From contig JBFMAY010000011.1 in the NCBI GenBank assembly GCA_040755455.1, positions 15,341-79,340 of the forward strand: DNA of 64,000 nt, written 5' to 3'. Shown piece by piece: positions 998-64,000 of this stretch. The DNA is from Thermodesulfobacteriota bacterium (lineage in GTDB: Bacteria > Desulfobacterota > Desulfobulbia > Desulfobulbales > SURF-16). The notes under the pieces are model-generated. The model worked only from the letters and a program-made list of their open reading frames with translations. It did not search any database and was not told the origin of the DNA. The translations under genes were made by a program, and so were the position numbers. The first letter of the stretch is position 1. Each line of letters starts with the position of its first letter.

Positions 998-1213
998 ATG
1001 CTTAAACACCTTCTTCATTTCTATGCCGACGGATTCCGTGCCATGAAAACAGGCCGTAAACTGTGGGCCATTATCTTCATCAAGCTTTTCATCATGTTCG
1101 CCATTCTCAAGGTCTTTTTTTTCCCCGATTATTTACAGACAAATTTTGCAAATGATGAGGAGAGGGCTGCCCATGTTTTCGATAACATCACCCAGCTCCC
1201 TCAAAACAAGTAA
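998..1213 (+). CDS. small membrane protein, DUF4492-like, leading the cydAB operon
   Basis: 71-aa ORF 14 nt upstream of cydA. It has one hydrophobic helix (LWAIIFIKLFIMFAILKVFFFP) and a YADGFRAMKTGRKLW motif that I recall from DUF4492 proteins preceding cydA. An AT-rich promoter-like region lies upstream. Confidence 0.6.
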   Translation: MLKHLLHFYADGFRAMKTGRKLWAIIFIKLFIMFAILKVFFFPDYLQTNFANDEERAAHVFDNITQLPQNK

Positions 1214-1227
1214 CAGCGGAGGTTATA

Positions 1228-2763
1228 ATGATTGAACAAATCGATCTTAGTCAGGTCAATTGGGCCCGGGCCCAGTTTGCTCTCACCGCCATGTACCATT
1301 GGATTTTTGTCCCGCTTACCCTGGGGCTGTCCTTTCTGGTGGCATTTTTTGAGAGTATTTACGTGCGCACGGGAAATGAAGAATGGAAACGGATCACCAA
1401 GTTCTGGATGACACTTTTCGGCATCAACTTTGCCATCGGCGTTGCCACCGGCATCATCATGGAATTTGAGTTCGGCACCAACTGGTCAAATTATTCCTGG
1501 ATGGTGGGCGATATCTTCGGTGCCCCGCTGGCGGTTGAGGGGATCTTTGCCTTTTTCCTGGAAGCCACCTTTTTTGCCGTGATGTTCTTCGGCTGGAACA
1601 GGGTTTCCAAAGGCTTTCATCTCTTCTCCACCTGGATGGTGGCCATCGGCTCCAACCTTTCCGCCCTGTGGATTCTGGTCGCCAACGGCTGGATGCAGTT
1701 TCCCACAGGCATGAAATTCAATCCGGACACGGCCCGCTTTGAAATGCACAATTTCTGGGAGGTGTTGTTCTCCCCGGTAGCCATCAGCAAGTTCACCCAT
1801 GCCACCAGTTCCGGCTTTCTGCTGGCCGCCCTTTTTGTGGTAGGGATCTCGTCCTGGTACCTGCTGAAGGATCGGCACCAGACCATGGCCAGGCGGAGCA
1901 TCATCGTCGCCGCGGTTTTCGGGCTGTTTTCCGCCGCCTATGTGGGCTTCACCGGTGACGAGGCCGCCTATACCGTGGCCCAGAAACAACCAATGAAACT
2001 CGCCGCCATGGAAGGGCTTTACGATGGTCAGACCAGCGCCCCTCTCGTTGCCTTAGGCCTGATCAACAGCGCCAAGGCCCCTGGCGACAACCAGCCACCT
2101 TTTGCCTTGGAAATCAAGATTCCCGGCCTGCTGTCACTGCTGGCCAACCGCGATCCCGGCTCCTTTGTCCCAGGCATCAATGATCTGGTATTCGGCAATA
2201 AGGAACACCACGTTATCGGCGCCGCGCAAAGAATTGAGAAGGGCAAAATAGCCCTGGAACTGCTGCGGACCTATAAGGAAGCCCGCAAAAACGGCGATCA
2301 GGCCGTTGCCGATACAGCACTGAAGGCCTTCGGCGACTATGAGAAAAACATGGGATACGGCTATCTGAACAATCCGTCCGAGGCGGTACCGCCGGTTGGT
2401 ATCACATTTTATGCCTTCCATGTCATGGTGGTGACAGGGGCGATCTTCCCGCTTGTATTTCTCCTCTTTCTCTTTTTTCAGATCAGAGGCACCCTGCCCT
2501 CGCAGCGCTGGCTGCTCAATCTCGGCATTCTGTGCATTCCCCTGGGATACATATCTCAGCAGGCCGGCTGGGTACTGGCCGAGGTCGGCCGTCAACCATG
2601 GGCCATCCATGGGCTGCTGCCGGTAACAGTGGCCAACTCGAACCTCACTACCGGCACCGTGCAGACCACTTTCTTTGTTTTTCTCGGCCTCTTCACCCTG
2701 TTGCTGATTGCCGAAATAAGTATCATGCTGAAACAGATCAATATCGGACCGGAGGAAAACTAA
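1228..2763 (+). CDS. cydA: cytochrome bd ubiquinol oxidase subunit I
   Basis: 511 aa, polytopic. Conserved CydA blocks include ARAQFALTAMYHWIFVPLTLG, GIIMEFEFGTNWS and EVGRQPWAIHGLLP (GRQPW motif). A Q-loop-like hydrophilic insert is present. Confidence 0.95.
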   Translation: MIEQIDLSQVNWARAQFALTAMYHWIFVPLTLGLSFLVAFFESIYVRTGNEEWKRITKFWMTLFGINFAIGVATGIIMEFEFGTNWSNYSWMVGDIFGAPLAVEGIFAFFLEATFFAVMFFGWNRVSKGFHLFSTWMVAIGSNLSALWILVANGWMQFPTGMKFNPDTARFEMHNFWEVLFSPVAISKFTHATSSGFLLAALFVVGISSWYLLKDRHQTMARRSIIVAAVFGLFSAAYVGFTGDEAAYTVAQKQPMKLAAMEGLYDGQTSAPLVALGLINSAKAPGDNQPPFALEIKIPGLLSLLANRDPGSFVPGINDLVFGNKEHHVIGAAQRIEKGKIALELLRTYKEARKNGDQAVADTALKAFGDYEKNMGYGYLNNPSEAVPPVGITFYAFHVMVVTGAIFPLVFLLFLFFQIRGTLPSQRWLLNLGILCIPLGYISQQAGWVLAEVGRQPWAIHGLLPVTVANSNLTTGTVQTTFFVFLGLFTLLLIAEISIMLKQINIGPEEN

Positions 2764-2764
2764 A

Positions 2765-3901
2765 ATGATCGGAAATCTTGATTATTCTATCCTGCAGCAC
2801 ATCTGGTGGATCATTGCCTCCCTGGTTGGCTCCCTCTTTCTTTTTCTCACCTTTGTCCAGGGCGGTCAGACCCTGCTTTTCACCGTTCCCCAGGGCGACG
2901 AGGAAAAATCGCTTATCATCAATTCCCTGGGCCGCAAATGGGAGTTGACCTTCACCACCCTGGTGCTTTTCGGCGGCGCTCTTTTTGCCGCTTTTCCCAA
3001 ATTTTACGCCACCAGCTTCGGCGGCGCCTACTGGGTGTGGATGCTGATCCTTTTCACCTTCATCATTCAGGCCGTCAGCTACGAATACCGCAAAAAACCG
3101 CAGAATTTTCTCGGCTCCACCACCTATGAGGCCTTTCTGTTCATCAATGGCAGTGTCGGTATTCTGCTTATCGGCGCAGCGGTCGGCACCTTTTTCACCG
3201 GTTCAAGCTTCTCGCTCAACGATTACAACCAGGTCACCTGGCAGACGCCATACCGGGGCCTCGAAGCGGCGAAAAATCTTTTCAATCTTTCCCTCGGCCT
3301 TTTTCTGGTTTTCAATGCCAGAGTGCTGGGCGCCATGTACCTGATCAACAACATTGACCACCAGCCGCTGACCGACCGCTGCCGGAAATCGGCCTGGAAG
3401 AGTTTTCTCTGGTCCCTGCCCTTCCTGCTCTATGTACTAATCAACCTGCTGGTTATGCAAGGTTACGCCCGCAACCCGGAAACCGGGGAGATCTTCCTGC
3501 AGAACGGCAAGTACTTGCAAAACCTGTTCGGCTGTCCCGTCACCCTGGTGCTGCTGCTGCTCGGTCTGCTGCTTGTTATTTACGCGGTGGCCGTCACCAG
3601 TTTCAAGGGTAAAAACAACGGCATCTGGTACGGAGGTATCGGCACCGTCCTGGTCGGTCTGTCCGTTTTTTTCCTGGCCGGCTTCAACAATACGGCCTTT
3701 TACCCGTCAAGCTTTGATCTGCAAAGCAGTCTGACCATCTACAATGCATCGAGCAGCCATTATACGCTGACCGCCATGACCTATGTGGCCCTGGCGGTAC
3801 CCTTTGTCGTTGCCTATATTGCCTATGTGTGGAGACAGATGGACAGCAAGCGGCTCACCATTGCCGAGCTGAAAAGCGAAAATGCGGATGAGATGTATTA
3901 A
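2765..3901 (+). CDS. cydB: cytochrome bd ubiquinol oxidase subunit II
   Basis: 378 aa, starting 2 nt after the cydA stop. It is polytopic, with a typical CydB N-terminus (LQHIWWIIASLVGSLFLFLTFVQGGQTL). Confidence 0.95.
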   Translation: MIGNLDYSILQHIWWIIASLVGSLFLFLTFVQGGQTLLFTVPQGDEEKSLIINSLGRKWELTFTTLVLFGGALFAAFPKFYATSFGGAYWVWMLILFTFIIQAVSYEYRKKPQNFLGSTTYEAFLFINGSVGILLIGAAVGTFFTGSSFSLNDYNQVTWQTPYRGLEAAKNLFNLSLGLFLVFNARVLGAMYLINNIDHQPLTDRCRKSAWKSFLWSLPFLLYVLINLLVMQGYARNPETGEIFLQNGKYLQNLFGCPVTLVLLLLGLLLVIYAVAVTSFKGKNNGIWYGGIGTVLVGLSVFFLAGFNNTAFYPSSFDLQSSLTIYNASSSHYTLTAMTYVALAVPFVVAYIAYVWRQMDSKRLTIAELKSENADEMY

Positions 3902-4258: not shown

Positions 4259-4927
4259 ATGGCTGTCCTGATTAACTTTACTGAAAAAGATATGGTCGAG
4301 CAGATGGCCATCCTCGATGATATTCAAGCAGCAGGGCAACACGAGGCGATTCCGGAGCTGTTTGATTTGCTGGCCGCCAAAAAATGCGAGCAGGCCACCC
4401 ATGAGATGATCTACCATACTCTTTTCAGCCTGATGAAAAATGACGCGGCAAGCATCAGGGCCGGCATCCTCCACCCCTCCTACCGCGTCAAACTGCTGAG
4501 CATCAGGCGCTGCAGGAAATCAGGCGCTGTTGCCGCGGTGCCGGAACTGATTCAGGTATTGCGCGCCAGCAATGATATGGTGGTTACCGGGGAGATCATC
4601 ATGACCCTGGGCTCCTTCAAGGACCCGGCCCTGATCGATATCCTGTGCCCGTATCTCTTTCATCCGGACCCCACCGTTCTCTCCTGGACCATGGCCGCCT
4701 TATCCGGCATAGAAAACGAAGAAATCAGGGGAATCCTGCAGGACTTGATCAGCAGTGATGAAAACCTCGATTTCCCGGACCGGAAGTGCAACCTGTCGAC
4801 CATGCTGGCCGTGGAGAATCTGGGAAAACTCAACGACGATGCCAGCAGAAGCTTTCTCCTCTCGCACCGCGACCACCCTCATCCCCTTTTGCGCAAGGCC
4901 GTTGCCAAGGCCCTGCACCTCTCATAA
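4259..4927 (+). CDS. HEAT/PBS-lyase-like repeat protein
   Basis: Repeated about-30-aa helical units (AIPELFDLLAAKK, AVPELIQVLRASND, LIDILCPYLFHPDPTV, HPHPLLRKAVAKAL). The start is chosen at the ATG preceded by GGAG; the track ORF begins at 4190. Confidence 0.6.
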   Translation: MAVLINFTEKDMVEQMAILDDIQAAGQHEAIPELFDLLAAKKCEQATHEMIYHTLFSLMKNDAASIRAGILHPSYRVKLLSIRRCRKSGAVAAVPELIQVLRASNDMVVTGEIIMTLGSFKDPALIDILCPYLFHPDPTVLSWTMAALSGIENEEIRGILQDLISSDENLDFPDRKCNLSTMLAVENLGKLNDDASRSFLLSHRDHPHPLLRKAVAKALHLS

Positions 4928-6247
4928 TCTGGCCCGCACCTCGTCGGCTTTCTGCCTCTCGCCCATATCCTCATAGAGAGCCAGCAGCTCTTCCAGAACC
5001 CGCGGGTCGTCGCCATTTTTTTCCAAAAGCTGCCGGCAGCATTTCTCCGCCTCAGCAAAGTCCTTTTTGTGCCGGTACGCCTTGGCCATGCCGAGCAGGG
5101 CAAACTGGTCAAAGCCGATCTTCATGCTCAGCTCATAATGGACCAGAGCGTCATCCAGCCTGCCCAGAATGACCAGCGCATCCCCAACCCGCGAATGGAG
5201 ATTCTGGTTGTGGGGTTCCTTTTCCAGAATCTTCAGCCAGTAACCGATGGAATTGTCATAGTTCTGCAACCCCCGCTGCGAGTCGCCCATGCCGTACAGG
5301 GCAAAAATATTCCACGGCTCCTGCTTCAGGGCCTTTTCATAAAAGTAGGCCGCCTTTTCATACTGCTTGCGGCGGCGATAGATATTGCCGGCCATGGTGA
5401 GCACGGCTATGTAGGTATCATCAAGCTCGATGAATTTCTCAAAATAGGCCAGGGCTTTATCGTGATCCGCCAGCTTATAATAGAGATTGCCGATGCCGCG
5501 CAGGGCGTATTTATCGGTGCCGTCCAGGGACAGGGCTTTGAGGTAAAGGACCTCGGATTCGGAAAAATTGCCTATCTTCACGTAGGAATCGGCAAGCCTG
5601 GTGAGAACATGGATATCATCATGGTTCTGCTGCAGGTAGCGCTGCCAGAAGGAAATGGCCTTGCCTGCCTGGCCAAGACCTCGATAGGCATCGCCGACCC
5701 CGCGCAGGGCGAACATATTCATCGGATCGATTTCCAGGGTCTTTTCATAAAAACCGATGGCCTTATGATATTTACCCGTTTCCCGATGCAGGTCACCTAG
5801 CCCGACCAGCACGTACGAGTTCTCACCGTCAATGGCCAGGGCTTCCAGAAAGGCGCTTTCCGCCTCCTTCCAGCACCTTTTCTTCAAGAATTCCGAGCCC
5901 TGCCGGGAAAGTTCGATGGCCCTCTTATGGTCAGACTGCATGTTGCCCTTGGCCCACTGCAGATACTCGGCCATCACATGCTCCGCCTCAATGGTGATCC
6001 ACTGCGGCAGCTCATAGGGATGCTTTTCCTTGAGCCATATTTCGAGCTTGCCGGCATTCTTGGCAAGAAACTTGAAGGTGACACGGTACTCTTCGTCACT
6101 CTCCAGATTATCCTGCCACAGATAAAACGAGCGGATCGGCCCGTCTATCTGGACACAGGCAGCCAGACGTTCGCTCACCGCCTCCCTGGCCAGCTTTTCC
6201 GCGTCTTCAAAGGAAGAAATTGTTGTCCATCCGATATACATCATCAT
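4922..6247 (-). CDS. CutA1 (divalent-cation tolerance, PII-like fold) domain fused to a long TPR array
   Basis: The N-terminal about 100 aa align with CutA (ERLAACVQIDGPIRSFYLWQDNLESDEEYRVTFK, KHPYELPQWITIE). The remainder is about 9-10 TPR units (repeated A..Y.KAL..DP patterns). Confidence 0.75.
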   Translation of the reverse strand: MMMYIGWTTISSFEDAEKLAREAVSERLAACVQIDGPIRSFYLWQDNLESDEEYRVTFKFLAKNAGKLEIWLKEKHPYELPQWITIEAEHVMAEYLQWAKGNMQSDHKRAIELSRQGSEFLKKRCWKEAESAFLEALAIDGENSYVLVGLGDLHRETGKYHKAIGFYEKTLEIDPMNMFALRGVGDAYRGLGQAGKAISFWQRYLQQNHDDIHVLTRLADSYVKIGNFSESEVLYLKALSLDGTDKYALRGIGNLYYKLADHDKALAYFEKFIELDDTYIAVLTMAGNIYRRRKQYEKAAYFYEKALKQEPWNIFALYGMGDSQRGLQNYDNSIGYWLKILEKEPHNQNLHSRVGDALVILGRLDDALVHYELSMKIGFDQFALLGMAKAYRHKKDFAEAEKCCRQLLEKNGDDPRVLEELLALYEDMGERQKADEVRARL

Positions 6248-6255
6248 TTCGTGGC

Positions 6256-7737
6256 CTACTCTTTTTTGCGTTTCATCTCAATTGTCTGTTGGGCGAAATC
6301 GCGCAACTTTCTCACATACTTCACCTGATCATTATCAAGAATCGGCTTCTCCTTGCTTCTGTCCAGATAAAGAAGAGCAATCCCCTTTTCCTGCAAACAG
6401 ACAGGGAAGAGATATACCGTGCGATTCTGCACGAGAAACTGCAGTGCATCAGGCAGGGTATCAACTTTATCCGGCGCAAGGGCAATGTCCTTACACATTG
6501 TCAAAGATTTCTGCAACAGATTCGGACTGGTCCGGGAAAGCGCCACCCGGAATTTTTTCAGCTGTTCAGGGTCAATATCGCCGCGCCCCAGCTGGCCGAC
6601 CAGCACTTTACTGTCGCCCTGGGTCTGCAGCATGGCAAAAACAGCCCGGTCCAGACCTACGCCCAAATAAAGGGCATCGAGCAAAAGGGGAAAAAAATCA
6701 TTGAGACGAAAAGTCCCCTTTACCATCTCATTGATTTCTTTCCAGAAATCATCAATGCTTTTACCAAGCATGGCGGATGACTCCGCCACACTGCTGGCCT
6801 GAATTTCCTCGAGCCTTTTCCGGAAATCAAATTTGAGGATCCCGGGCCGGATCGAATCAAAAATTGCCTCCGAGGCCTGGGTTGCGACAACCAGCAGATC
6901 AACGGCCTCTTCTTCATCCAGGGAAAGAGGAAAGCCGTATTTTGCCATCAGTGGCTCGATATGCTGCTGAAACCACAGACAGTCCACATATCGATTACTG
7001 AAATCGACAATAGCGTGCAGATATTTTTCAACATCACCACCCTCTTCCGGCACTTCCGGGTCCGGTTCCATACATCTTATCACACTTTCCGTCATATTCC
7101 AGAAAATAGCAACCTCCCGGCCGACCCCGGCATAGGTCAGCCCATCGAGGACAGACATTGCCGCCTCATCTTCCGAAACCCCTTGTCCCACCTTTTCTTT
7201 GATGGAACCGTATATGACGGGCAGATAGATGCAGGCAATGATTTTACCGAGATTACGCATGAGACCGCAGATAAAAGCCTCTTCCGGTAGCACCTTCAGA
7301 TAACGGGACTCAGCTATGCTGCGGGCAAGCAAGGCGGCCAGAAATGACCGGCCAAGCAGTTCGCTGATCTCCTCGGTATTGACCCCGGCCTGAATGAAAT
7401 CATCAAAAAGAGCGATACCGATGGCAAGGTCCCGCACTGTATCAAAGCCAAGCACCGCCACCGCCATGGAAACGGTGGAAACCTTCTGGCCAAGGGCATA
7501 ATAGGCCGAGTTGGCAAACTGCAGAACCTTATGGGTGAGGGAAAAATCCTTGAGGATGATCTTGGCCAGATCTTCATAATTCGCGGTGGTCTTGCTGCTG
7601 GTAAGGGCGAGCAGCTCCTGCACATGGACAGACATGGCGGGAAGTTCGCTCATGTTTATTTTGGCGAAGACATCGGCCAGTTTTCCTTTTGAATGCAGGC
7701 TGCTGTCGGTCATGAAATAAATATTTCTCTTTGGCAA
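6256..7737 (-). CDS. HDOD domain signalling protein with a C-terminal GAF-like region
   Basis: HDOD signature region: LPAMSVHVQELLAL...ILKDFSLTHKVLQFANSAYYALGQKVSTVSMAVAVLGFDTVRDLA. The C-terminal half looks like a sensory alpha/beta domain. Confidence 0.75.
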   Translation of the reverse strand: MPKRNIYFMTDSSLHSKGKLADVFAKINMSELPAMSVHVQELLALTSSKTTANYEDLAKIILKDFSLTHKVLQFANSAYYALGQKVSTVSMAVAVLGFDTVRDLAIGIALFDDFIQAGVNTEEISELLGRSFLAALLARSIAESRYLKVLPEEAFICGLMRNLGKIIACIYLPVIYGSIKEKVGQGVSEDEAAMSVLDGLTYAGVGREVAIFWNMTESVIRCMEPDPEVPEEGGDVEKYLHAIVDFSNRYVDCLWFQQHIEPLMAKYGFPLSLDEEEAVDLLVVATQASEAIFDSIRPGILKFDFRKRLEEIQASSVAESSAMLGKSIDDFWKEINEMVKGTFRLNDFFPLLLDALYLGVGLDRAVFAMLQTQGDSKVLVGQLGRGDIDPEQLKKFRVALSRTSPNLLQKSLTMCKDIALAPDKVDTLPDALQFLVQNRTVYLFPVCLQEKGIALLYLDRSKEKPILDNDQVKYVRKLRDFAQQTIEMKRKKE

Positions 7738-50553: not shown

Positions 50554-50646
50554 TGACAGGCGGCGGGGGAATCGTTGCTCCCCTGCCGGCTTGCGCGAAA
50601 ACTTATCGGCGAGCACACTGTGATAGCTCATTGCAATTCAGGCGCC

Positions 50647-50716
50647 GTAGCTGCTGGCCTTGCCCGCGATCACAGGCATCTTGTCATGGAATCGCGCGGG
50701 CATGGCCCGCTTCTAC
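50647..50716. repeat. degenerate second copy of the GTAG-type REP palindrome
   Basis: GTAGCTGCTGGCCTTGCCCGCGAT...ATCGCGCGGGCATGGCCCGCTTCTAC, compared with the copy at 24099-24170 (GTAGGAGCGGGCCATGCCCGCGAC...ATCGCGGGCATGGCCCGCTCCTGC). Confidence 0.6.
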
Positions 50717-50772
50717 TGTGCGCCTTATGGCGAAAAAGACTTTCGACTAACCCATCAAACACAAGGCATCCC

Positions 50773-51933
50773 ATGAACGCCATATCCCCATGCACAACAG
50801 TCCGGGCCTGCGCCGGTTCACAGTCATGCCGGCAGTCAGGAAAAGCACTTGAGCTGCCGGTGGCGGCCCGCGTCAATGCCAGGCTGCGCTCTACCTCCAC
50901 GGCCAGGACCCCCCAGGCCATGCTGCCGCAGGGGGCGGCGAACCGGCTTGACGACTTGCTCAGCCGGGGCGCAGACATCGGCGAGGTACAGCTCAGCGGC
51001 CCTGGTGATCCCCTGGCAGATATCCGTCCCACCCTGGAGACCTGCCGCCTGGTGCGGGACAGACATGCCGACCTGCGGCTGGGTATCACCACCCTTGGCA
51101 TCAACGCTGAGGCCTATGCCGATACCCTGGCCGAACACGGGGTATGCACGGTCACCCTGCTGGTGGAGGCGGTTGACCCAGAGCTGGTGAAAAACCTCTA
51201 TGCCTGGATCCGACCCGGCACCAGGACCATTCCCCTGAGTCAAGCGGCCCCCATGCTGGTGGAGGCACAGAAGCGGGCCATTACCGCCCTGCAACGGGCC
51301 GGTCTTACGATCACGGTCAGGACCACGGTTTTCCCAGGCATCAACGACAGCCACGTGGCGGCAATCGCCGAACGGATGGCCGAGCTGGGAGTGGGGAAAA
51401 TGGTCCTGGCACCCTGCCCGGATGAGCCGGACGCACCCAATGCGCCGGACAGCGCCCGCATGGCTGCCCTGGCCGGGCTGGCAGGCCGCTATCTTGCCAC
51501 GGAAATCATTGCCCCGGCCGCGGCCGACCTGGGCGCCACCCGAGCTGCGGCAGGAGGCGCGGCGGCTGGCATGCTGCCGCAGCCGAGCCCAACGCGGCCC
51601 AACGTGGCGGTGGTCAGCGCCACCGGCATGGATATCGATCTGCACCTCGGCCAGGCCGGCCGGGCCCTGATATACGGGCCCAGGGAAGACGGCCTGCCCT
51701 GCCTGCTGACCACCCGGCCCCTGCCCCCTCCGGGAAGCGGCAGCGTCAGGTGGGAGAAGCTGGCGGATTCGTTCACCGACTGCTTTGCCCTGCTCACCTC
51801 AGGCGCCGGTGACAATCCACGAAAGGTTTTAGCCAGCCACGGCATCACCGTGCTCGTTACCGACGGCAATGTGGAGGGCACGGTGGACGCGCTGTACGGC
51901 GGCGGCAAAAACGGAAAACAATGCCGCAGATAG
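50773..51933 (+). CDS. NifB-like paralogue lacking the radical-SAM and auxiliary-cluster cysteines (radical-SAM-barrel-like plus NifX-like domains)
   Basis: Collinear with NifB (58525..59796): LSGPGDPLADIRPTLETCRLVRD, VEAVDPELVKNLYAWIR, FPGINDSHVAAIAERMAELG, NVAVVSATGMDIDLHLGQA. However, LPVAARVNARLRSTSTA replaces LPVAPKCNIKCNYCNRK. Start chosen at MNAISPC (AAGG 8 nt upstream). Confidence 0.7.
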   Translation: MNAISPCTTVRACAGSQSCRQSGKALELPVAARVNARLRSTSTARTPQAMLPQGAANRLDDLLSRGADIGEVQLSGPGDPLADIRPTLETCRLVRDRHADLRLGITTLGINAEAYADTLAEHGVCTVTLLVEAVDPELVKNLYAWIRPGTRTIPLSQAAPMLVEAQKRAITALQRAGLTITVRTTVFPGINDSHVAAIAERMAELGVGKMVLAPCPDEPDAPNAPDSARMAALAGLAGRYLATEIIAPAAADLGATRAAAGGAAAGMLPQPSPTRPNVAVVSATGMDIDLHLGQAGRALIYGPREDGLPCLLTTRPLPPPGSGSVRWEKLADSFTDCFALLTSGAGDNPRKVLASHGITVLVTDGNVEGTVDALYGGGKNGKQCRR

Positions 51934-52289: not shown

Positions 52290-52723
52290 ATGGCTGCGCC
52301 CATGGTGATCATCCGTGCGGCCCGTCCCGCCGACATTGACAGCCTCACGGCCCTGCTGAAAATCCTCTTCAGCATCGAAGAGGACTTTATTTTTGACGAA
52401 ACGCGGCAGCGCCCGGGCCTGCGTGCTGGCGGCCGAGGCGGATGGCCAGGTCATCGGCATGTGCTCCGGCCAGCTCACCGTGTCCACCGCCGAGGGCGGC
52501 CCAGCCCCTGCTGGTGGAGGATGTGGTGGTTTTGCCTGACTGGCACGGCCGGGGCATCGGCCGCCGCCTGATGGAGAGCCTCGGCGCCTGGGCCGGAGAA
52601 CAGAGGGTAAGGCGGCTCCAGCTGCTGGCTGACCGCAACAACGGCCCGGCCCTGGATTTTTACAGCAAACTCGGCTGGCAGACCACGGAGCTGATCTGCC
52701 TGCGCAAACGCCTGCCGCGCTGA
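52290..52723 (+). pseudogene. GNAT-family N-acetyltransferase interrupted by two frame changes
   Basis: The N-terminus is in frame 0 (VIIRAARPADIDSLTALLKILFSIEEDFIFDETRQR). The middle is in frame +1 (ACVLAAEADGQVIGMCSGQLTVSTAEGGPA). The core is in frame +2 (LLVEDVVVLPDWHGRGIGRRLMESLGAWAGEQRVRRLQLLADRNNGPALDFYSKLGW). The shifts lie near 52410-52420 and 52495-52510, both in G/C runs. Confidence 0.6.
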
Positions 52724-52750
52724 AAGGGGCGGCGGGAATAAGGATATCGA

Positions 52751-53218
52751 ATGACCATGGCACAGGAAAATAATACCCATATGTCACCGGCTGCTGGCCG
52801 GTCCGGCCTGATCGGCTTCAGCGATATCAAATTTCAATCCATCAAGGGCTGGGAAGAATACCTGCGCGAGGGGGAACAATACCTGACCACGGCCCGCCGG
52901 GCCTTTGCCGGTCAGCGGCACGCCTTTACCGCCGAGATCCTCTACAACGTCATCGCCATGGCCATTGAAAAACTGGTGATGTCCGCCCTCATGCAGAGCG
53001 GCCACCTGCCATACAACCATACCATGCGTGACCTGGCGGCAGCCATGGAGGAACATTTTCCCGGCCGGCTGGGCACCATCAGGGAACGGCTGCTGGCCCT
53101 TGATACCTACCAGGAAATCTGCGACCTTGACACCTACCACAGACAGCCGCCCACCATGGAGGAAATCCCGGCCATGCTCGGGCTGGCCATTGAGCTGCAG
53201 GAGCTGGTGAGCCGATGA
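52751..53218 (+). CDS. hypothetical protein, HEPN-like helical domain
   Basis: 155 aa, all-helical. The pattern ARRAFAGQRHAFTAEILYNVIAMAIEKLVMSALMQSGHLPYNHTMRDL resembles HEPN (A..A.EK..K..L...G......H.L..L). This is a weak call. Confidence 0.4.
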   Translation: MTMAQENNTHMSPAAGRSGLIGFSDIKFQSIKGWEEYLREGEQYLTTARRAFAGQRHAFTAEILYNVIAMAIEKLVMSALMQSGHLPYNHTMRDLAAAMEEHFPGRLGTIRERLLALDTYQEICDLDTYHRQPPTMEEIPAMLGLAIELQELVSR

Positions 53219-53335
53219 AACTGTTTACGGGCTAGGGAAGTAAGCGCTAAACGAATTTAATCCGACACCTCTCACATCCGCAGATCATCCGGAAATTCCG
53301 ATGACAAATCGCCGCTCATCACCAGCAGCGTATAT

Positions 53336-55090
53336 TCAGCATTTATCACCAGTCATCTTCAAAAGTTTGCCGATAAAATGATGAACATCCTCATGAATTT
53401 CATCGGGGCTCATGCTCATAGCAACCTCATCACGAATGAGCTGCAAAGATGGTGAGCCAGTTCGAAGTTGGTGGAAAAGTGAGTTGTCATCTTCGAACAG
53501 AATTCGCTTCCCATCGACCACCATGAATATATTTGCCGTTACGTTTCGCCACGTTTTTCCAGCGGGCAACGTCAAATTCTGATCGGAAAAAAAATTATTG
53601 ATGGTGTGTAACACTGGATACGCAAAAAGATTGTCTTCTTTGCTTTTCATAAGCTGGAGAGCTGCTCGCTTCCAGGCATCAGGAACCAACAAGTAGTTTT
53701 CAATATTTTTTCGCTTCCACTCGGTTAATGTAAGGTTATCAGTAGGGGGATGAAATGCATTGGCGCTATTGTCGTAGTCGAAGAGCATTAATCGTGAAAC
53801 CTCAGGGATGATCTGCTGCAATGCTGCGTAATGTTCATCCGCCCTGTTTTTCATGTTCTCTTTGCCGCCACCCCCCATCGTCTTGAAACAGACTTTGTCA
53901 ATCGCTACCTGCGCACAGCATTGAGCTGCCCAAGCACGAAGAATACGTTCATCGCTTTCCCCTTCCACATAGAGAATGTAGGGCGATGCCATCAGCCTTG
54001 CTATTTCTTCGTTGGTAACTTCCGACATTGCTCTCAACACTTCCGGTGTTGACTGAATACGCCTTGGCACTTGACTCAGCAGCGAGACTATTTGACTGGC
54101 ATCAACACCTCGCGCAAACTCCTCTGCATGTGTAGCAATCAGAAACTGAGTGTTTCTCTCAAAAGATTTTCTTTTGAAAAAATCGAGAATCTCACGTTGC
54201 AAGTTAACATGCAGATGAGCATCTGGTTCATCAAGGAGTATGGTGGTGGGTTGATAACCATACAGAAAGGCCAACAGAGTCAGAGTCTGGTGGAACCCGC
54301 TCCCCCCGGAAATAATGTCATAGTTTTTGCCATTTTGTCGATATTCAACGGTGATATAGACATCCCCTGCAGAGTCATATTTTGGCTCACGAATTTTTAC
54401 AGAGAACCAGCGTTCGGTTATAGCAGCCAGTTCCTGCCAGTCATTAGGCGATGGCCGTTTGACGATACGACCATCCGATTCTCTTTCGGGTGGGGGACAC
54501 ACCCGTAACAGTAAATTGCGAAGTACGCTTCCGGGTTGACCCTTCCCTACCTGCTGGCGAATCGGAGAATCATCTAGTTTTTTCTCGGTTGGCTCCAGGC
54601 CAGAAAAAGGGGGTACGTAGGCAATTTTGGGCAGGATCCCCTGCTTTTCGCATTCACGGAATTTTGCCCAACCATCGCTGGGAATTGCATAAATTGTTTG
54701 CGGCGAGTGGTAGCGCAACTCTACGCCAAAAGAATCTGTCGCTCCAGTCTCCATCAGCCATTCCACCCGAATGCCAATCAGAATGTATTCCTGCTTTTTT
54801 TTGCCGTTGACCATAGGCCAATGCCGATCAGTTCTATCTTTCCAAAGCAGGTTAAATTCAGGAACCGGCAAAGCAGTAAAGTTTGGCAGGACCACCTGTA
54901 CACCTTTTGTACCGCTGCGTTTCAATCTATGAAACTCATCAACACAGTACTGCCAGATTGCCAACGCCTGCAACACTGTGCTTTTGCCGCTGTTATTCCT
55001 CCCAATCAGAAGATCAAACTGGAAAAAGTCGTAGACCTGTTCACTTACACTTTTGAAATTACGTAGCGCTAATTTTGTAATCATAGACAA
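53336..55090 (-). CDS. ABC-type ATPase fused to a Toprim/DUF4435-like nuclease domain (OLD-family / fused PARIS AriA-AriB-like defence candidate)
   Basis: 584 aa. N-terminus: LRNFKSV, P-loop GRNNSGKSTVLQAL, Walker B/D-loop ILLDEPDAHLH, and ATHAEEF. C-terminus: ILYVEGESDERIL ... GGGGKENM ... LMLFDYDNS (DxD) ... RKNIENYLLVP. It is visibly AT-richer than its neighbours and is flanked by noncoding DNA. Confidence 0.7.
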   Translation of the reverse strand: MSMITKLALRNFKSVSEQVYDFFQFDLLIGRNNSGKSTVLQALAIWQYCVDEFHRLKRSGTKGVQVVLPNFTALPVPEFNLLWKDRTDRHWPMVNGKKKQEYILIGIRVEWLMETGATDSFGVELRYHSPQTIYAIPSDGWAKFRECEKQGILPKIAYVPPFSGLEPTEKKLDDSPIRQQVGKGQPGSVLRNLLLRVCPPPERESDGRIVKRPSPNDWQELAAITERWFSVKIREPKYDSAGDVYITVEYRQNGKNYDIISGGSGFHQTLTLLAFLYGYQPTTILLDEPDAHLHVNLQREILDFFKRKSFERNTQFLIATHAEEFARGVDASQIVSLLSQVPRRIQSTPEVLRAMSEVTNEEIARLMASPYILYVEGESDERILRAWAAQCCAQVAIDKVCFKTMGGGGKENMKNRADEHYAALQQIIPEVSRLMLFDYDNSANAFHPPTDNLTLTEWKRKNIENYLLVPDAWKRAALQLMKSKEDNLFAYPVLHTINNFFSDQNLTLPAGKTWRNVTANIFMVVDGKRILFEDDNSLFHQLRTGSPSLQLIRDEVAMSMSPDEIHEDVHHFIGKLLKMTGDKC

Positions 55091-55477
55091 ATCACCACTT
55101 TGCAGTATACAAGTTATGTTTTTTTATACTTTGAAAACATTCATCACCTCATCCCCAAAACAAGCAAAGCCCTATATTTACCCTTCACTCTTCACAATTT
55201 TTTCTCACATCTGCTCAAAGGCTTCCTTCACCCTGGCACCCGGTCAACTGCTCCAGATTGTTCACACCGGGTTCCCCGATGACCAGCAGAAAATCTTACT
55301 CCAGCAAAAAAATCTCAACAACACAACCGATCTATGCAGCAAATACCCCCTGTCTGCCCAATAATCAAGCACATACTACTTCTTTATAGACATACTCCGA
55401 CAGAAACATCTCGACATCATCGGCAATATTCTTATTTTTCCCCCACACCCGACAAAATTGTCCCCCTCCTTCATTTT

Positions 55478-55493
55478 TGTAACCTTTCCGACA
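55478..55493 (+). promoter_or_regulatory. candidate NifA upstream activator sequence (TGT-N10-ACA) for nifENB
   Basis: TGTAACCTTTCCGACA. It begins 114 bp upstream of the TGGCAC at 55592, the same spacing as at nifH. It shares the CCGACAAA 3' half with the nifH site. An extra CCGACAAA half-site lies at 55449-55456. Confidence 0.55.
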
Positions 55494-55591
55494 AATGTCG
55501 CGGTCTGCGCCAACGCGCATTCATTCCCGGCGAAACCATCACCGCCACATAACACCACGTAATCACACACTTTTCTCGCCATAATTTCTCA

Positions 55592-55607
55592 TGGCACACC
55601 CGTTGCT
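55592..55607 (+). promoter_or_regulatory. sigma-54 (-24/-12) promoter of the nifE-nifN-nifB operon
   Basis: TGGCAC-ACCCG-TTGCT is a perfect match to TGGCAC-N5-TTGCW. It lies 75 nt before the nifE ATG. Confidence 0.8.
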
Positions 55608-55681
55608 AAAGCAGTGCTCAAACAGGACACAACAGCCACTACGGCATAATCGCATTTCCGCCATTTTCACATGGGACCACT

Positions 55682-57058
55682 ATGGAAGCCATTGCCTTAA
55701 AAGAGAGAGAAAACCAGATCTACCGCAAGGGGGATACGCCCTTTGAGATTACCTGCAACAAGGACAGTCTGGCCGGGGCGGTGAGCCAGCGGGCCTGTGT
55801 CTTCTGCGGCTCCCGGGTGGTGCTCTATCCCATTGCCGATGCCCTGCATCTGGTGCACGGGCCCATCGGCTGCGCCGTTTACACCTGGGATATCCGCGGC
55901 GCGCTCTCCTCCGGACCTGAGCTGCATCGCCTGAGTTTCTCCACCGACCTGCAGGAGCGGGACGTCATTTTCGGCGGCGAAAAAAAACTCGAAAGAGCCC
56001 TCAATGAACTCATCGACCGGCACAGTCCCAAGGCGGCCTTTGTCTATTCCACCTGCATCGTCGGCATCATCGGCGACGATCTGGAGGCGGTCTGCCGCAA
56101 GGTGACCGAGCAGAAAGGCATCCCGGTCATTCCCGTGCAGTCCGAAGGGTTCAAGGGCAACAAGCGCTCCGGCTACAAGGCGGCCTGCAATGCCATGTTC
56201 CGCCTGATCGGCACCGGCGACACCAGGTGCATTAGCAAGCACAGCATCAATATCCTGGGCGACTTCAATCTGGCCGGCGAGATCTGGATGGTGCGCGACT
56301 ATTTCAACCGCATGGGCATCGAGGTGGTGGCCAACATCACCGGCGACGGCCGCATTGACGACATCCGCCGGGCCCACGGCGCGGCCTTGAATGTCGTGCA
56401 ATGCTCCGGCGCCACCATGGATCTGGCCAACATGATGGAGGAGAAATACGGCACCCCCTCCATCCGGGTCTCCTATTTCGGCATCGAGGACATGTCCGAG
56501 GCCCTCTATGATGTGGCCCGCTTCTTTAAAGACCTGGAGATGATGGCCCGCACCAGGGAACTGATCCAGGCAGAGGTGCGTACGATCCAGCCCGAGCTGC
56601 AGCGCTACAAAAAGGCGCTGACCGGCAAAAAGGCGGCCATCTATGTGGGCGGCTCCTTCAAGGCCTTTTCCCTGGTCAAGGCCTTCCGGCTCATCGGCAT
56701 GGATGTGGTGATGGTGGGCTCCCAGACCGGCTCCAGGGAGGACTATGAGGAGCTGGCCCAGATCACCGATCCGGGCACCATCATTGTCGATGACTCCAAT
56801 CCCCTGGAGCTGACCTCCTTTCTCAAGGAAAAAGAGGTGGATGTCTTTGTCGGCGGGGTTAAGGAGCGGCCCATCGCCTACAAGCTGGGCGTGGGCTTCT
56901 GCGACCACAACCATGAACGCAAGGAGGCCCTGGCCGGCTTTGCCGGCATGCTCAACTTCGCCCGTGAGGTCTATTCGTCGGTGATGAGCCCGGTGTGGAA
57001 ATTCGTGCCGCGCAAGGCAAACGGAAACGATCAAACGTTTAAACGTTTCAGCGCTTGA
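55682..57058 (+). CDS. nifE: nitrogenase FeMo-cofactor biosynthesis scaffold NifE
   Basis: NifD-like fold: RACVFCGSRVVLYPIADALHLVHGPIGCAVYTWD, STCIVGIIGDDL. About 458 aa. The C-terminal 13 aa are encoded by the 8-bp repeat array. Confidence 0.95.
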   Translation: MEAIALKERENQIYRKGDTPFEITCNKDSLAGAVSQRACVFCGSRVVLYPIADALHLVHGPIGCAVYTWDIRGALSSGPELHRLSFSTDLQERDVIFGGEKKLERALNELIDRHSPKAAFVYSTCIVGIIGDDLEAVCRKVTEQKGIPVIPVQSEGFKGNKRSGYKAACNAMFRLIGTGDTRCISKHSINILGDFNLAGEIWMVRDYFNRMGIEVVANITGDGRIDDIRRAHGAALNVVQCSGATMDLANMMEEKYGTPSIRVSYFGIEDMSEALYDVARFFKDLEMMARTRELIQAEVRTIQPELQRYKKALTGKKAAIYVGGSFKAFSLVKAFRLIGMDVVMVGSQTGSREDYEELAQITDPGTIIVDDSNPLELTSFLKEKEVDVFVGGVKERPIAYKLGVGFCDHNHERKEALAGFAGMLNFAREVYSSVMSPVWKFVPRKANGNDQTFKRFSA

Positions 57059-60164: not shown

Positions 60165-60206
60165 TGAGCAACACCATGCCCAAAAGCGGGGGAGAGACGG
60201 AGCGCC

Positions 60207-60527
60207 TCAGCCGGATTGCTCGTCATCTTTCTTCTTCAGCACATCCAGGATTTCCTCCATGTTCAGCCAGCTTTCAATTGAACAGGTGAAACCGGCAACA
60301 CCGGCAAATGCATCAAGGCGCTTCTGAATAAATTTCTTTTCTTCAAAAGAGATCTGCTGCTCCGTGAATTTGAAGAAAGAAATGTAGTGGATGTTTCCCT
60401 TCGCATCAATGGAAAAAAAGGGTCCGTGCCTTTTGACCGTTGCCGGCAGCTTGGGAAGCCCGGTGAAAATCTTTATGGTTTCCTTCAAGCTGCTGCGGGG
60501 AAAACTCGCCCTTGCAATCAATATCAT
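60207..60527 (-). CDS. hypothetical protein (106 aa)
   Basis: ORF with alpha/beta-like alternation and an acidic/basic tail (KKKDDEQSG). No recognisable motif. Its coding status is uncertain. Confidence 0.35.
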   Translation of the reverse strand: MILIARASFPRSSLKETIKIFTGLPKLPATVKRHGPFFSIDAKGNIHYISFFKFTEQQISFEEKKFIQKRLDAFAGVAGFTCSIESWLNMEEILDVLKKKDDEQSG

Positions 60528-60701
60528 TTGGGTGCCATGCCGAGGATTGAAAAATTCTACATTCTGGCCGCAAAGCCAACACGCTTGATATAGTTTAACC
60601 CATCGCCATCCTTATTGACAGCGGCATAATGTCACAGTCGCCGGAGCATCCCTCTTCCCCATGGCCCCGCATCCCGGCCGCATTACATGAGCAAGGCCGG
60701 G

Positions 60702-61181: not shown

Positions 61182-61861
61182 GAAATCATTTCCATTGGGA
61201 ATGGCGGGGGCCTGGGCCACGGCTGCCACCCGGCCGTATTCGTTACAGTGCTCCTGACAGGCCAAACAATATCATACAAATCCCGCATCGACCACTTTTA
61301 CTTGCAGGTCGAAATAATCATAATTTTACCAATGACACTGCCGCGCCGAAAGTGGAGAGTAGAGAGATGCCGGCCAAACAGTCAGGGTTATCCCAGGCAC
61401 ATACCTGAACGGCATTTTTGCCCCCCTGCGGTGCGGTGGGCAAAATAGGCTTTGACCAGTAGAGCGGTTTATGGAATGATAAAGACTGATTCGCCTGCAA
61501 AACCGTTGTAGGGGTAAGACCATGCATCACCAGCTGAACGGACCTGCCGGAATACGCCGCCTTCTCTTTGTTTTCTTTCCCGGATGCTGGCTTGTCGCCA
61601 CATTTCCTGCCCTAACCGGTATTGCCCGGGGACATCTTTTTTATCGCGAACGACTCCTGCAGTGCCAATGGCTGGCCCCTTTTTTCCCGATGAGGATCAG
61701 GCAATGCCCCCCAGGATAATCCAGCAATAAAACGTTCTTTCGGCAACCTCTTTTTATTGCATGGAAATTAAACTGTGAAATTACATAAAAATTGAGTATT
61801 ATTCGCGGCTGTTTTTTGGTTTGCCCCCCAGCAGCTTCCCTTTTATGCATCGATAAAAATT

Positions 61862-64000
61862 ATGAACAGAGCCAATATCCTCATCAGCATTGCCATTGCT
61901 GTCATCTGCATCTGTTTCTGGGCCTTTTTCAACCAGCCGGAAACAGAGCCCCCCTGGCCGGAACGCATCCAGGGGTTTTCTTTTTCACCAATGCGCGAAG
62001 GACAGAGCGCCATCGCGCATGTCCTGCCCTCTGAAGAGGAGATTGACGCCGACCTTGCCCTGCTGGCTGACAAAACCCATGCCGTACGCACCTATACCAT
62101 GGAAGGATCACTGGCACAGATCCCGGTCCTGGCCAGCAAGCATGGGCTCAATGTAACCCTCGGGGCCTGGATCGATGCCAACCCGGAAAAAAACGAGCAG
62201 GAGATCGAGAAGCTCATTGCCGTGGCCCGGGAAAACTATCGCAACGTGGTGCGGGTCATCGTCGGCAACGAGGCCATCCTGCGCGGCGAGATCACTGCCG
62301 AGCAACTCGCCGTCTACCTGGACAGGGTAAGGGAGGCGCTGGATATGCCGGTGGGCACGGCCGAACCCTGGCATGTATGGTTCAACAACAAGGACCTTGC
62401 CAATCACGTCGACTTCGTTGCCGTTCACATGCTGCCCTACTGGGAAGGTGTTGATGTGGAACGGGCGGTTGACTATGTGGTCGATCACGTCAATCTCCTC
62501 AAAGCCTCCTTCCCGGACAAACCGATTATCATCGGCGAGGTTGGCTGGCCCAGCAACGGCCGCACCCGTCATGCGGCTGTTGCCTCTCCCGCCAACGAGG
62601 CCACCTTCCTGCGCCGCTTTCTGGACCGGGCAGTCAAGGAACAGTATGTCTATTACGTGATGGAGGCCTTTGACCAGCCCTGGAAAAAGGTGTCGGAAGG
62701 GGCGGTCGGGGCATACTGGGGGGTGTATGATGTGTACCGGCAGCCCAAATTCGCCTTTTCCGAACCCATTGTTGAAATTCCGGAATGGCGCCTGCTGGCC
62801 GGCATATCCATCGTCATCGCCCTGATCACCTTCTCCTTCCTGCTCATCGACAGCAAGACCCTGAGCAAACGCGGCCGAGGTTTTCTCGCCACCATAGCCT
62901 TTGGCGCGGCCAGCGGGGCGGTGTGGGTTGTCTACAGTTATTTACAGCAGTATCTCAGTCTGACCACCATCCTGGTCGGCCTCCTGATGATTGTCGGCAT
63001 GGTCGGGGTCACGGTGGTGCTGCTGGCCGAGGCCCACGAATGGGCCGAAGCGACCTGGGCGGCGAGCCGGCGCCGCCAGTTCACCCGGATTGAGCTCTCG
63101 GACGACCAGCTGCCCATGGTTTCCGTGCACGTGCCGGCGTACAATGAACCGCCGGACATGCTCAATGAAACGCTGGACGCCCTGGCCAAACTCGACTACC
63201 CCCATTACGAAGTGATCGTCATTGATAACAACACCAAGGATCCTGCCGTCTGGCAACCCGTGGAAGCCCATTGCGCCAAGCTTGGCCCCCGTTTTCGCTT
63301 TTTCCACGTCGATCCGCTGGCCGGTTTCAAGGCCGGGGCCTTGAATTTTGCTCTGGCCCGCACCGCACCCGAGGCGGAGGTGGTGGCGGTCATCGACAGC
63401 GACTATATGGTTGCCCCGAACTGGTTGCGGGATCTCACTCCCCAGTTCAGCAACCCCAAAATCGCCATTGTCCAGGCCCCGCAGGATTATCGCGACGACA
63501 GCGAAAGCCTTTTCAAGGCCATGTGTTATGCCGAGTACCGGGGTTTCTTCTATATCGGCATGGTGACCCGCAATGAGCGTAACGCCATCATCCAGCACGG
63601 CACCATGACCATGGTGCGCAGATCGGTGCTGGATGAAGTGGGAGGCTGGGCGGAGTGGTGCATCACCGAAGACGCCGAACTGGGTCTGAAGATATTCGAG
63701 AAAGGGTATGAGGCCGCCTACAATGCCGACAGCTACGGAAAAGGGGTGATGCCAGACACCTTTATCGACTTCAAAAAGCAGCGCTTCCGCTGGGCTTACG
63801 GCGCGGTGCAGATCATGCGCTATCATTCCAAGGCCCTGTTCGGCGGCAAGACCAGCCTTTCCTTGGGCCAGCGCTACCATTTCATCGCCGGCTGGCTTCC
63901 CTGGATGGCTGACAGCCTCAACCTGCTGTTCACCCTGGCCGCGGTTTACTGGTCTCTGGCCATGGCATTTTTTCCCAAGGTAGTGGACCCGCCGCTGGTG
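61862..64000 (+). CDS. GH17 glucanosyl-hydrolase/transferase domain fused to a processive family-2 glycosyltransferase (NdvB-like beta-1,3-glucan synthase); the 3' end lies outside the window
   Basis: Absent from the ORF track because no stop codon is reached; read by hand as 713 open codons. GH17 motifs: IVGNEAIL and IIGEVGWPSNG. These are followed by TM helices and GT2 motifs: VHVPAYNEPPDM, VIVIDNNT, VIDSDY, TEDAEL, QRFRWAYG. Confidence 0.85.
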   Translation, partial: MNRANILISIAIAVICICFWAFFNQPETEPPWPERIQGFSFSPMREGQSAIAHVLPSEEEIDADLALLADKTHAVRTYTMEGSLAQIPVLASKHGLNVTLGAWIDANPEKNEQEIEKLIAVARENYRNVVRVIVGNEAILRGEITAEQLAVYLDRVREALDMPVGTAEPWHVWFNNKDLANHVDFVAVHMLPYWEGVDVERAVDYVVDHVNLLKASFPDKPIIIGEVGWPSNGRTRHAAVASPANEATFLRRFLDRAVKEQYVYYVMEAFDQPWKKVSEGAVGAYWGVYDVYRQPKFAFSEPIVEIPEWRLLAGISIVIALITFSFLLIDSKTLSKRGRGFLATIAFGAASGAVWVVYSYLQQYLSLTTILVGLLMIVGMVGVTVVLLAEAHEWAEATWAASRRRQFTRIELSDDQLPMVSVHVPAYNEPPDMLNETLDALAKLDYPHYEVIVIDNNTKDPAVWQPVEAHCAKLGPRFRFFHVDPLAGFKAGALNFALARTAPEAEVVAVIDSDYMVAPNWLRDLTPQFSNPKIAIVQAPQDYRDDSESLFKAMCYAEYRGFFYIGMVTRNERNAIIQHGTMTMVRRSVLDEVGGWAEWCITEDAELGLKIFEKGYEAAYNADSYGKGVMPDTFIDFKKQRFRWAYGAVQIMRYHSKALFGGKTSLSLGQRYHFIAGWLPWMADSLNLLFTLAAVYWSLAMAFFPKVVDPPLV

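Follow-up and report, generated by a model that had tools for sequence, protein, structure and literature searches.

An ATPase-Toprim gene inside a Desulfobulbia nif cluster, probable orphan of a type III restriction-modification and Gabija-like island

This work concerns a minus-strand gene for a protein with an ATPase half and a Toprim half, which lies among plus-strand nitrogen fixation (nif) genes in a 64,000-nt stretch of DNA from a Thermodesulfobacteriota bacterium (GenBank assembly GCA_040755455.1, contig JBFMAY010000011.1, positions 15,341 to 79,340; hereafter the window). A first-pass annotation, made from the sequence alone, had taken it for a solitary defence module that landed between the nifHDK-side genes and the nifENB promoter. 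We now consider it probable that the gene is the orphaned survivor of an island that joined a type III restriction-modification (R-M) system to a Gabija-like pair, that its partners were deleted, and that the remaining OLD-superfamily enzyme may be useful on its own.

Organization of the Locus

The open reading frame (ORF) at 53336..55090 on the minus strand, 584 amino acids when counted from a TTG codon, is present in the ORF listing as it had been described. Its likely true start is the ATG at 55084, two codons downstream of TTG 55090, which gives a protein of 582 amino acids. We prefer this start because a Shine-Dalgarno-like GGTGA (55092-55096) stands 7 nt 5′ of it and because the identical NCBI protein P0001 likewise has 582 amino acids. 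The apparently noncoding flanks of the ORF measure 117 nt (53219-53335) and about 590 nt (55091-55681), in line with the first estimates of about 115 and 590 nt. Within them we detected what appear to be the ends of four other genes, all on the minus strand and in the same order as in the intact operon described below:

53272..53328, minus strand: putative stump of a UvrD/GajB-like helicase gene, last 18 codons and stop (LLVMSGDLSSEFPDDLRM), beginning 7 nt past the ATPase stop codon.
53336..55084, minus strand: intact ATPase-Toprim gene, stop TGA at 53338-53336, all family-invariant residues present.
55085..55123, minus strand: spacer between the stop of the mod stump and the ATPase ATG, 39 nt by sequence reading, containing GGTGA at 55092-55096.
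55124..55159, minus strand: putative stump of a type III methyltransferase (mod) gene, last 11 codons and stop (FGDEVMNVFKV).
55178..55204, minus strand: Bro-N 3′-end-like stump (EKIVKSEG and stop).
55215..55289, minus strand: putative stump of a type III restriction subunit (res) gene, the res 5′ region joined to C-terminal codons (LLVIGEPGVNNLEQLTGCQGEGSL and stop).

The candidate helicase stump shares 14 of its 18 residues with the C-terminus of the intact helicase at locus L090 (HLLVTSGDVPSEFLDDLRM and stop; tblastn), and identity is also visible at the nucleotide level. The mod stump aligns with a strongly conserved mod 3′ end (VINHLGDEVMKVFRV and stop) that lies just upstream of the ATPase gene in 16 loci, and it matches the mod stump of another contig, L005, over 33 nt at 91%. 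Where mod is intact, 26-80 nt separate it from the ATPase gene, and the 39 nt of the window fall inside this range. The Bro-N stump agrees in 26 of 28 nt (E 3e-6) with the Bro-N end of the related nif locus L008 (EKIVKSEE and stop), and the match is collinear and keeps the orientation. We assign it with moderate confidence because a related junction motif recurs in L008. The res stump was recognised from the L008 res gene, which begins with LAIG and ends with WVPGVNNLEH, a stretch of 35 amino acids and VKSEGSL before the stop; its local nucleotide score against that gene was reached by 1 of 500 shuffles.

With probable stumps of res, Bro-N, mod and helicase genes on its two sides, the gene can hardly have landed here as a single-gene module, as was first supposed. 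The accompanying statement that no GajB-like helicase or second gene is present stands in that the window has no intact partner, and fails for the 18-codon helicase stump and the three others.

What remains of the four lost partners on the minus strand of 53272-55289 is in each case the 3′ end (8-24 codons) and not a random piece; of res, the other end was retained too. The pattern may be due to chance, to repeat-mediated deletion or to selection on operon junctions. A short GTGAAGAGTGAAG-like motif is repeated at the gene junctions of the L008 island (~3241-3260, 3665-3699 and 4528-4541) and at window 55177-55204. Its role may be in translational coupling or as a junction sequence, or the deletions may have used it as a substrate.

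Several other candidate features were rejected. Looking downstream of the gene for an N-terminal helicase stump gave nothing convincing; it was a later search that revealed the C-terminal stump. A 14-nt direct repeat (GACAAATCGCCGCT / GACAAATCACCACT) that brackets the gene was discarded as a target-site duplication and put down to chance, because its copies fall within the helicase stump in one case and across the ribosome-binding site in the other. A hairpin resembling a terminator, at 53330-53310, is also located within the helicase stump and was not accepted as a real terminator. No terminal inverted repeats were found around the gene. An Rfam scan of 52500-56500 at E ≤ 1 gave zero matches, with no sign of a retron-like or other RNA in the 590-nt gap.

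Base Composition

The GC content of the gene is 0.46, against 0.63 in the left and 0.60 in the right nif flank. It is the lowest-GC 1750-nt stretch in the 64-kb window (z = -2.45; 0.7% of windows are equally low) and also the top tetranucleotide-deviant 1.75-kb stretch; in both profiles its composition stands apart from the flanks and looks foreign. The whole patch between the nif genes had been judged AT-rich by eye. Computation bears this out for the gene, whereas the rightmost ~400 nt (55275-55681) are the nifE upstream region, whose L008 counterpart is equally AT-rich (GC 0.455). Since this region is natively AT-rich in L008, the foreign segment extends at most over 53219-55290.

The second most composition-deviant part of the window is a NifB-like paralog (Radical_SAM + Nitro_FeMo-Co) at 50575-51933 on the plus strand, with GC 0.70-0.72 especially at 51200-51800. 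Low-GC patches (0.465-0.49) also lie downstream of nifB, at 60200-60600 and 61400-62000.

Family, Usual Neighbours, and Recurrent Orphaning

Neither Pfam nor NCBIfam nor PADLOC has a model made for the ATPase-Toprim subfamily. When 1.84 billion cluster representatives were searched, there were 2741 matches at E ≤ 1e-5 and 229 clusters at E ≤ 1e-30 (90%-identity clusters). To describe its usual surroundings we took loci encoding proteins 52-86% identical to the window ATPase and clustered their neighbours.

In 16 loci a large type III mod gene is intact and ends 26-80 nt upstream of the ATPase gene, and the last 80 residues of its product are 85-96% conserved (ending in GRIAVKVINHLGDEVMKVFRV and stop). 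The L090 mod matches the PADLOC MTase_III model with 1414 bits. A restriction subunit (ResIII/RE_endonuc) is near the ATPase gene in 10 loci. An intact UvrD-like helicase of 690-704 amino acids follows the ATPase directly in six (L090, L093, L095, L096, L097 and L100), and the L090 helicase matches PADLOC GajB at 3e-25. The order res-BroN-mod-ATPase is complete in L147, a Hydrogenophilales contig with an 82% identical ATPase; there, as in L008, Bro-N has its place between res and mod. On a distant branch (53% identity), in L123 and L126, the ATPase-Toprim gene (5001-6716 and 5001-6737, respectively) is placed between mod upstream and res 3-18 nt downstream. Other copies stand behind a type I R-M operon, in toxin-antitoxin-rich islets or alone among housekeeping genes, in unrelated phyla. 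Type III R-M operons thus carry the subfamily, and with it a GajB-like helicase, as a conserved passenger.

The window is one of several places where the ATPase gene seems to have outlived its partners. In six further contigs remnants of the partner genes stand beside an ATPase gene that is intact:

L005 (Pelodictyon-type): 35-aa mod end.
L089: 67-aa mod end and 37-aa helicase start.
L094: 21-aa mod end and 45-aa helicase start.
L099: 36-aa helicase end.
L104: helicase C-terminal pieces.
L145: 73-aa mod start with a stop codon inside.

We regard these orphanings as independent events because the breakpoints differ.

Between the window gene and its homologs the nonsynonymous divergence (dN) is 0.11-0.17, while the synonymous divergence (dS) is saturated against every homolog, which points to long-term purifying selection. 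Protein identity of about 80% across phyla likewise indicates strong constraint and not recent spread. The GC content of the gene is below that of its flanks in nearly all of 34 loci, though the host flanks range from ~36% to 67% GC. Taken with the saturated dS, this makes AT-richness a trait of the family, not a clock and not a sign of recent arrival; we rejected recent horizontal transfer on these grounds. A phage or plasmid vehicle was rejected as well: no phage match was found, and plasmid matches were at most 27% identical.

Domains and Fold of the Protein

The protein encoded in the window consists of two parts:

54050..55084, minus strand: OLD-type ABC ATPase half, about residues 1-345, assigned from Pfam, the invariant columns of alignment A1 and Foldseek.
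53339..54049, minus strand: Toprim and helical C-terminal region, about residues 346-582, assigned from conservation in alignments A1 and A2, AlphaFold, Foldseek and PADLOC.

The motifs read from the sequence at first (GRNNSGKST, LLDEPDAHLH, ATHAEEF, YVEGESD, GGGGK, LFDYDNS and IENYLLVP) are all in the translation. The ATPase half has a Walker A motif (G28-K34), a signature-like G261xG263..Q266, a Walker B/D-loop (D285-E286-P287-D288) and an H-loop (H319). The Toprim half has E374 and D378 after strand 1 (YVEGESD), D436-x-D438 after strand 3 (LFDYD) and W456..E462-N463-Y464 (IENYL). The strands of the AlphaFold model agree with this, residues 369-373 being followed by E374/D378 and residues 430-435 by D436xD438. 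A glutamate after strand 1 and DxD after strand 3 form the Toprim signature as defined in PMC12065111. Alignment A1 contains 71 full-length relatives with 24-78% identity, at least 90% of which keep these Toprim hallmarks. Residues K34, D285, E286 and H319 are invariant in it; the Walker A lysine, DEPD, the H-loop histidine, E374, D378, D436, W456 and E462-N463-Y464 are among its invariant or near-invariant positions.

Pfam identified AAA_15 (1.6e-19), AAA_21 (2.4e-19) and, above the cut-off, SMC_N in the N-terminal part, and nothing at E ≤ 10 in the C-terminal 250 residues. Among the 71 relatives, DUF4435 was found in three (best 7e-6) and OLD-like_TOPRIM in one (0.0095). NCBIfam has no specific model that matches the protein. 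The best full-span match in PADLOC is the merged PARIS model AriAB (6.9e-18), which spans the ATPase-Toprim junction, residues 242-480 lying on profile positions 291-534 of 694; its whole-protein score of 62.7 bits is significant yet low. AriAB is also the only PADLOC match of the C-terminal half alone (2e-5 and 21 bits, again significant yet low). The GajA models gave E values from 5e-14 to 3e-11, with best stretches confined to residues ~284-409, and the Old model matched only the N-terminal P-loop region. When 31 C-terminal domains of the family were compared with PADLOC, AriAB was found for 14, AriB for 8 and Old or GajA for none.

The full-length AlphaFold model has a pLDDT of 95.5 and a pTM of 0.90, and the model of the C-terminal part (residues 338-582) a pLDDT of 93.6. 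Foldseek matched the full-length model to PtuA, TsOLD, GajA and retron PtuA at E from 1e-11 to 1e-13. For the C-terminal model the top places among PDB structures were occupied exclusively by the OLD superfamily: the best was Xanthomonas (Xcc) OLD 6njx (E 4e-4, TM 0.45/0.52), Burkholderia (Bp) OLD 6nk8 was also there, and AriB 8ux9_A was within the top five (E 1.6e-3), with GajA, retron Eco8 and Thermus OLD (TsOLD) lower down.

By architecture, motifs and modelled fold, the protein is best described as an ATPase-Toprim enzyme from a divergent subfamily within the OLD superfamily. By sequence profile its Toprim half comes nearest to AriB, and by fold, as far as the model goes, to class 2 OLD. 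The first-pass assignment to an ABC ATPase plus Toprim of the OLD/PARIS superfamily was thus broadly right in view of the AAA_15, AAA_21 and AriAB matches and the OLD/AriB folds. Of the profiles examined, AAA_15 and AAA_21 matched, PADLOC AriAB did so at low scores, and Pfam DUF4435 and OLD-like_TOPRIM did not.

The AriAB signal raises the question of a PARIS-like sentinel, a merged AriAB (class 4 OLD-like) protein that would sense phage anti-restriction proteins and cause abortive infection, its Toprim cleaving host tRNA. No PADLOC models other than AriAB and AriB recognise the Toprim half, the structural matches include AriB near the top, and the family has a tight linkage to R-M operons of type III and sometimes of type I; merged single-gene AriAB forms have been described, and PARIS is triggered by the anti-restriction protein Ocr (PMC9122126, PMC11464382). 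However, Pfam DUF4435 is missing from the window protein and rare among its relatives, the best folds are C-terminal regions of class 2 OLD and not AriB, the recurrent UvrD-like helicase is a hallmark of Gabija and not of PARIS, and the nuclease release described for PARIS is impossible in a fused protein. On balance we find a PARIS-like function quite unlikely.

The nif Junction in Related Genomes

The scan anchored on nifE, with one genome per species, gave 80 loci with nifE 75-92% identical. None of them (0/80, tblastn) has the ATPase-Toprim gene, so that it is not conserved at this nif position. The gene is acquired and not native to the nif cluster, being absent from the 80 related loci and foreign in composition.

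Its location inside the cluster could still suggest a native nif accessory gene or a housekeeping DNA-maintenance ATPase, as OLD-family ATPases with non-defence roles exist, archaeal Cran1 acting in the cell cycle (PMC12796447). Against this stand the absence from 80 of 80 loci, the opposite strand, the foreign composition, the R-M and helicase stumps alongside, and the homologs in R-M operons and toxin-antitoxin-rich islets of unrelated phyla. Such a role is highly improbable, and the native nif-gene reading is close to refuted.

The right-hand side of the junction contains the regulatory region of nifE:

55290..55681, no strand assigned: divergent intergenic region shared with L008 (80% identity), with the nifE regulatory sites and probably the former res promoter, which would now point towards the ATPase gene.
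55478..55493, plus strand: NifA upstream activator sequence TGTAACCTTTCCGACA, a perfect TGT-N10-ACA, in a block conserved in all six aligned relatives.
55592..55606, plus strand: nifENB sigma-54 promoter TGGCACACCCGTTGC, a perfect TGGCAC-N5-TTGC, invariant across relatives.

The only other perfect sites of these two kinds within the window are upstream of nifH. The NifA site and the sigma-54 promoter are intact to the right of the gene, as first claimed, being perfect matches conserved in relatives.

Locus L008 (nifE 92%) is the closest nif relative. Its homology with the window starts at 55275 and runs rightwards, corresponding to L008 7590 onwards and reaching just before the start of the L008 res gene. 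Here a type III R-M island with Bro-N abuts the same nifE-upstream sequence as in the window, and its res and mod share 65-85% identity with those found beside the ATPase family elsewhere. At L008 1-330 (minus strand) the conserved mod 3′ end is followed by a gene starting with MTGQYTKARFWKCALQVNPAGY, which is not the ATPase and has no Pfam match on its 74 available residues. This arrangement suggests a cassette exchange downstream of mod. The L008 junction also has a 23S rRNA-IVP four-helix-bundle gene (3268-3657, minus strand) between Bro-N and mod.

The window shares with three relatives (L008, L009 and L021) the presence of minus-strand defence genes immediately upstream of the nifE promoter. 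In L009 (nifE 91%) positions 274-3672 on the minus strand encode a 778-aa HmaB/PglX-like DNA methylase and a 348-aa protein without family match, which may be another defence system. In L021 (Desulfurivibrionaceae, nifE 80%) positions 4890-7656 on the minus strand encode a HEC-01 pair, a 430-aa AAA_21 ATPase and a 184-aa DUF4276 protein; the junction also holds a HEPN/MNT pair (NTase_sub_bind + Polbeta), and the site is between nifE and the homolog of o52751. In more distant relatives a ferredoxin-like or GNAT gene abuts nifE directly, and in others 3-5 kb of unrelated genes lie in between. We considered the junction as a defence hotspot and could uphold this in part only, since other relatives have two-component systems, transporters or nothing there. 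The boundary between the nifHDK side and nifENB is variable in Desulfobulbia-like genomes, with differing defence cargo in these four loci.

Two genes to the left of the window gene deserve mention. A nif-linked GNAT acetyltransferase gene at 52290-52729 (plus strand) has two frameshifts: the stretches homologous to intact GNATs (in L033, L074 and L080) are in frame 1 over 52299-52424, in frame 2 over 52414-52488 and in frame 3 over 52508-52729. It is either a pseudogene beside the decayed island or the product of assembly errors in a GC-rich stretch. The 155-aa ORF at 52751-53218 (plus strand) has no Pfam match; with homologs (37-59% identity) in the nif clusters of at least nine relatives, it looks like an uncharacterised gene associated with nif.

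Origin and Probable Fate of the Gene

The proposed history begins with an operon of res, often Bro-N, mod, the ATPase-Toprim gene and then a UvrD/GajB-like helicase, that is, a Gabija-like (class 2 OLD-like) pair that would have travelled behind a type III R-M system. A res-BroN-mod-ATPase-helicase island would have stood beside the nifENB promoter region before the lineages of the window and L008 split, and the cargo downstream of mod would have diverged between them later. In the window lineage res, Bro-N, mod and the helicase were presumably deleted to 8-24 terminal codons each, the ATPase-Toprim gene being left intact. The deletions would have brought the gene to ~200 nt downstream of the former res promoter region, which probably drives its transcription now.

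By analogy with OLD, GajA and AriA/AriB, in which the ATPase acts as sensor or regulator of the Toprim nuclease (PMC10568477, PMC11464382, PMC12065111), the ATPase head would bind ATP and take the same part. The Toprim site (E374, D378, D436/D438 and E462) would bind Mg2+ and cut nucleic acid upon a phage cue. Its target is most likely DNA, with nicking or exonuclease action as in OLD and GajA, because of the GajB-like helicase as ancestral partner and of a fold that comes closest to class 2 OLD. AriB-like tRNA cleavage seems less likely; it is considered because of the AriB-like sequence signal and the tight R-M linkage.

The repeated survival of orphans suggests that the lone gene keeps a selectable function, in the manner of class 1 OLD; the lone class 1 OLD of Vibrio cholerae (Vc OLD) does defend (PMC12392090).

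A number of points weigh against this explanation. Neither the protein nor its C-terminal half matches Pfam DUF4435 (PF14491) or OLD-like_TOPRIM (PF20469) even at E ≤ 10. A search of PDB with the C-terminal profile returned no solved OLD, AriB or GajA chain by sequence, chance matches only, and we gave up a sequence-level tie between solved structures and the Toprim half. Both the Bro-N stump and the res stump are short. The frameshifts of the GNAT gene may mean that the whole neighbourhood is decaying or that the assembly is error-prone here. The time since the deletions is not estimable because dS is saturated. Upstream of the gene, the minus strand showed no sigma-70-like promoter. Finally, Gabija defence is reported to require every component (PMC10568477), so that an orphan without its helicase may be inert.

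On a rival view the gene is a dead relic: the one remaining part of the island that mutation has spared so far, functionless without its helicase and R-M partners and heading for decay. The deletion of all four partners, the two-component requirement of Gabija, the adjacent frameshifted gene and the lack of a clear upstream promoter all agree with it. Yet the ORF of 582 codons is unbroken and has kept every invariant catalytic residue, the orphan state with an intact ORF is repeated in at least six other unrelated contigs, and many solitary copies without detectable stumps hold ~80% identity with saturated dS, which speaks for selection on the lone gene. We consider a dead relic unlikely and keep to an orphaned survivor that may still act on its own.

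Significance

The gene itself is an ordinary type of defence enzyme; what is noteworthy is the archaeology of four stumps and the repeated orphaning from a type III R-M/Gabija-like operon. A further idea, which we put forward tentatively and would not bet on, is that the subfamily constitutes a distinct unnamed composite system: a type III R-M system and a Gabija-like ATPase-Toprim/UvrD pair with an AriB-like Toprim sequence, from which the ATPase-Toprim gene has been repeatedly selected to persist alone. If so, there would be a natural route from multi-gene systems to stand-alone class 1-type OLD defence genes, and the lone enzyme would be autonomously functional or otherwise hard to lose. 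The repeated sole survival of the gene bears on the origin of solitary OLD nucleases and on whether they work without partners. For annotation, an "AAA family ATPase" inside a nif cluster may here be read as a defence-type nuclease left by a decayed R-M island, beside which the nifENB regulatory region survived intact.

Comparison with Known Systems

With Gabija GajA and class 2 OLD (BpOLD 6nk8, XccOLD 6njx and BcGajA) the window protein shares an ABC ATPase as well as a C-terminal Toprim with a helical region. Class 2 OLD gives the best fold matches of its C-terminal half, and the putative ancestral module has a UvrD-like helicase that matches GajB directly after the gene. This tandem UvrD/PcrA/Rep-like helicase (GajB) is present in L090, L093, L095, L096, L097 and L100 and not intact in the window, where it is reduced to 18 codons. 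In contrast to Gabija, the pair is embedded behind a type III R-M operon, the GajA hidden Markov models cover only the ATPase and the first Toprim strand (E ~1e-13), and the window Toprim has no sequence-level match to solved GajA or OLD Toprims.

The merged AriAB of PARIS (class 4) likewise unites in one polypeptide an AAA_15/21 ATPase and a Toprim that has the motifs EGxxD, DxD and IENYL. DUF4435 (PF14491), which belongs to the published PARIS detection rule (PMC9122126), has no match in the window protein, and the AriAB scores are modest, the whole protein reaching 62.7 bits and its C-terminal half 21 bits. The recurrent partners of the window family, type III R-M and the UvrD helicase, are not part of PARIS. 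PARIS is an anti-anti-restriction system (PMC9122126), and the R-M linkage of the window family echoes that role.

Class 1 OLD (P2 Old, Thermus scotoductus OLD 6p74 and Vc OLD) resembles the present state of the gene, a stand-alone ATPase-Toprim gene for ~580 amino acids, and TsOLD is a Foldseek match of the full model. The solitary state, however, would be secondary here, resulting from partner deletion; PADLOC Old matches the P-loop region only, and Pfam OLD-like_TOPRIM is absent. The two-gene ATPase plus Toprim-like systems (HEC-01, AbiL, MADS3-4 and Rlo genes) have in common with the window protein an OLD-type ABC ATPase and a frequent R-M or methylation linkage, and a HEC-01 pair (AAA_21 + DUF4276) occupies the same nif junction in L021. 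Their small Toprim-like protein (DUF4276, RloB or DUF4435) is separate, whereas in the window protein the two parts are fused. In terms of class, the gene is class 1-like by secondary loss, class 2-like by ancestry without the helicase, and AriAB-like by a low-score profile.

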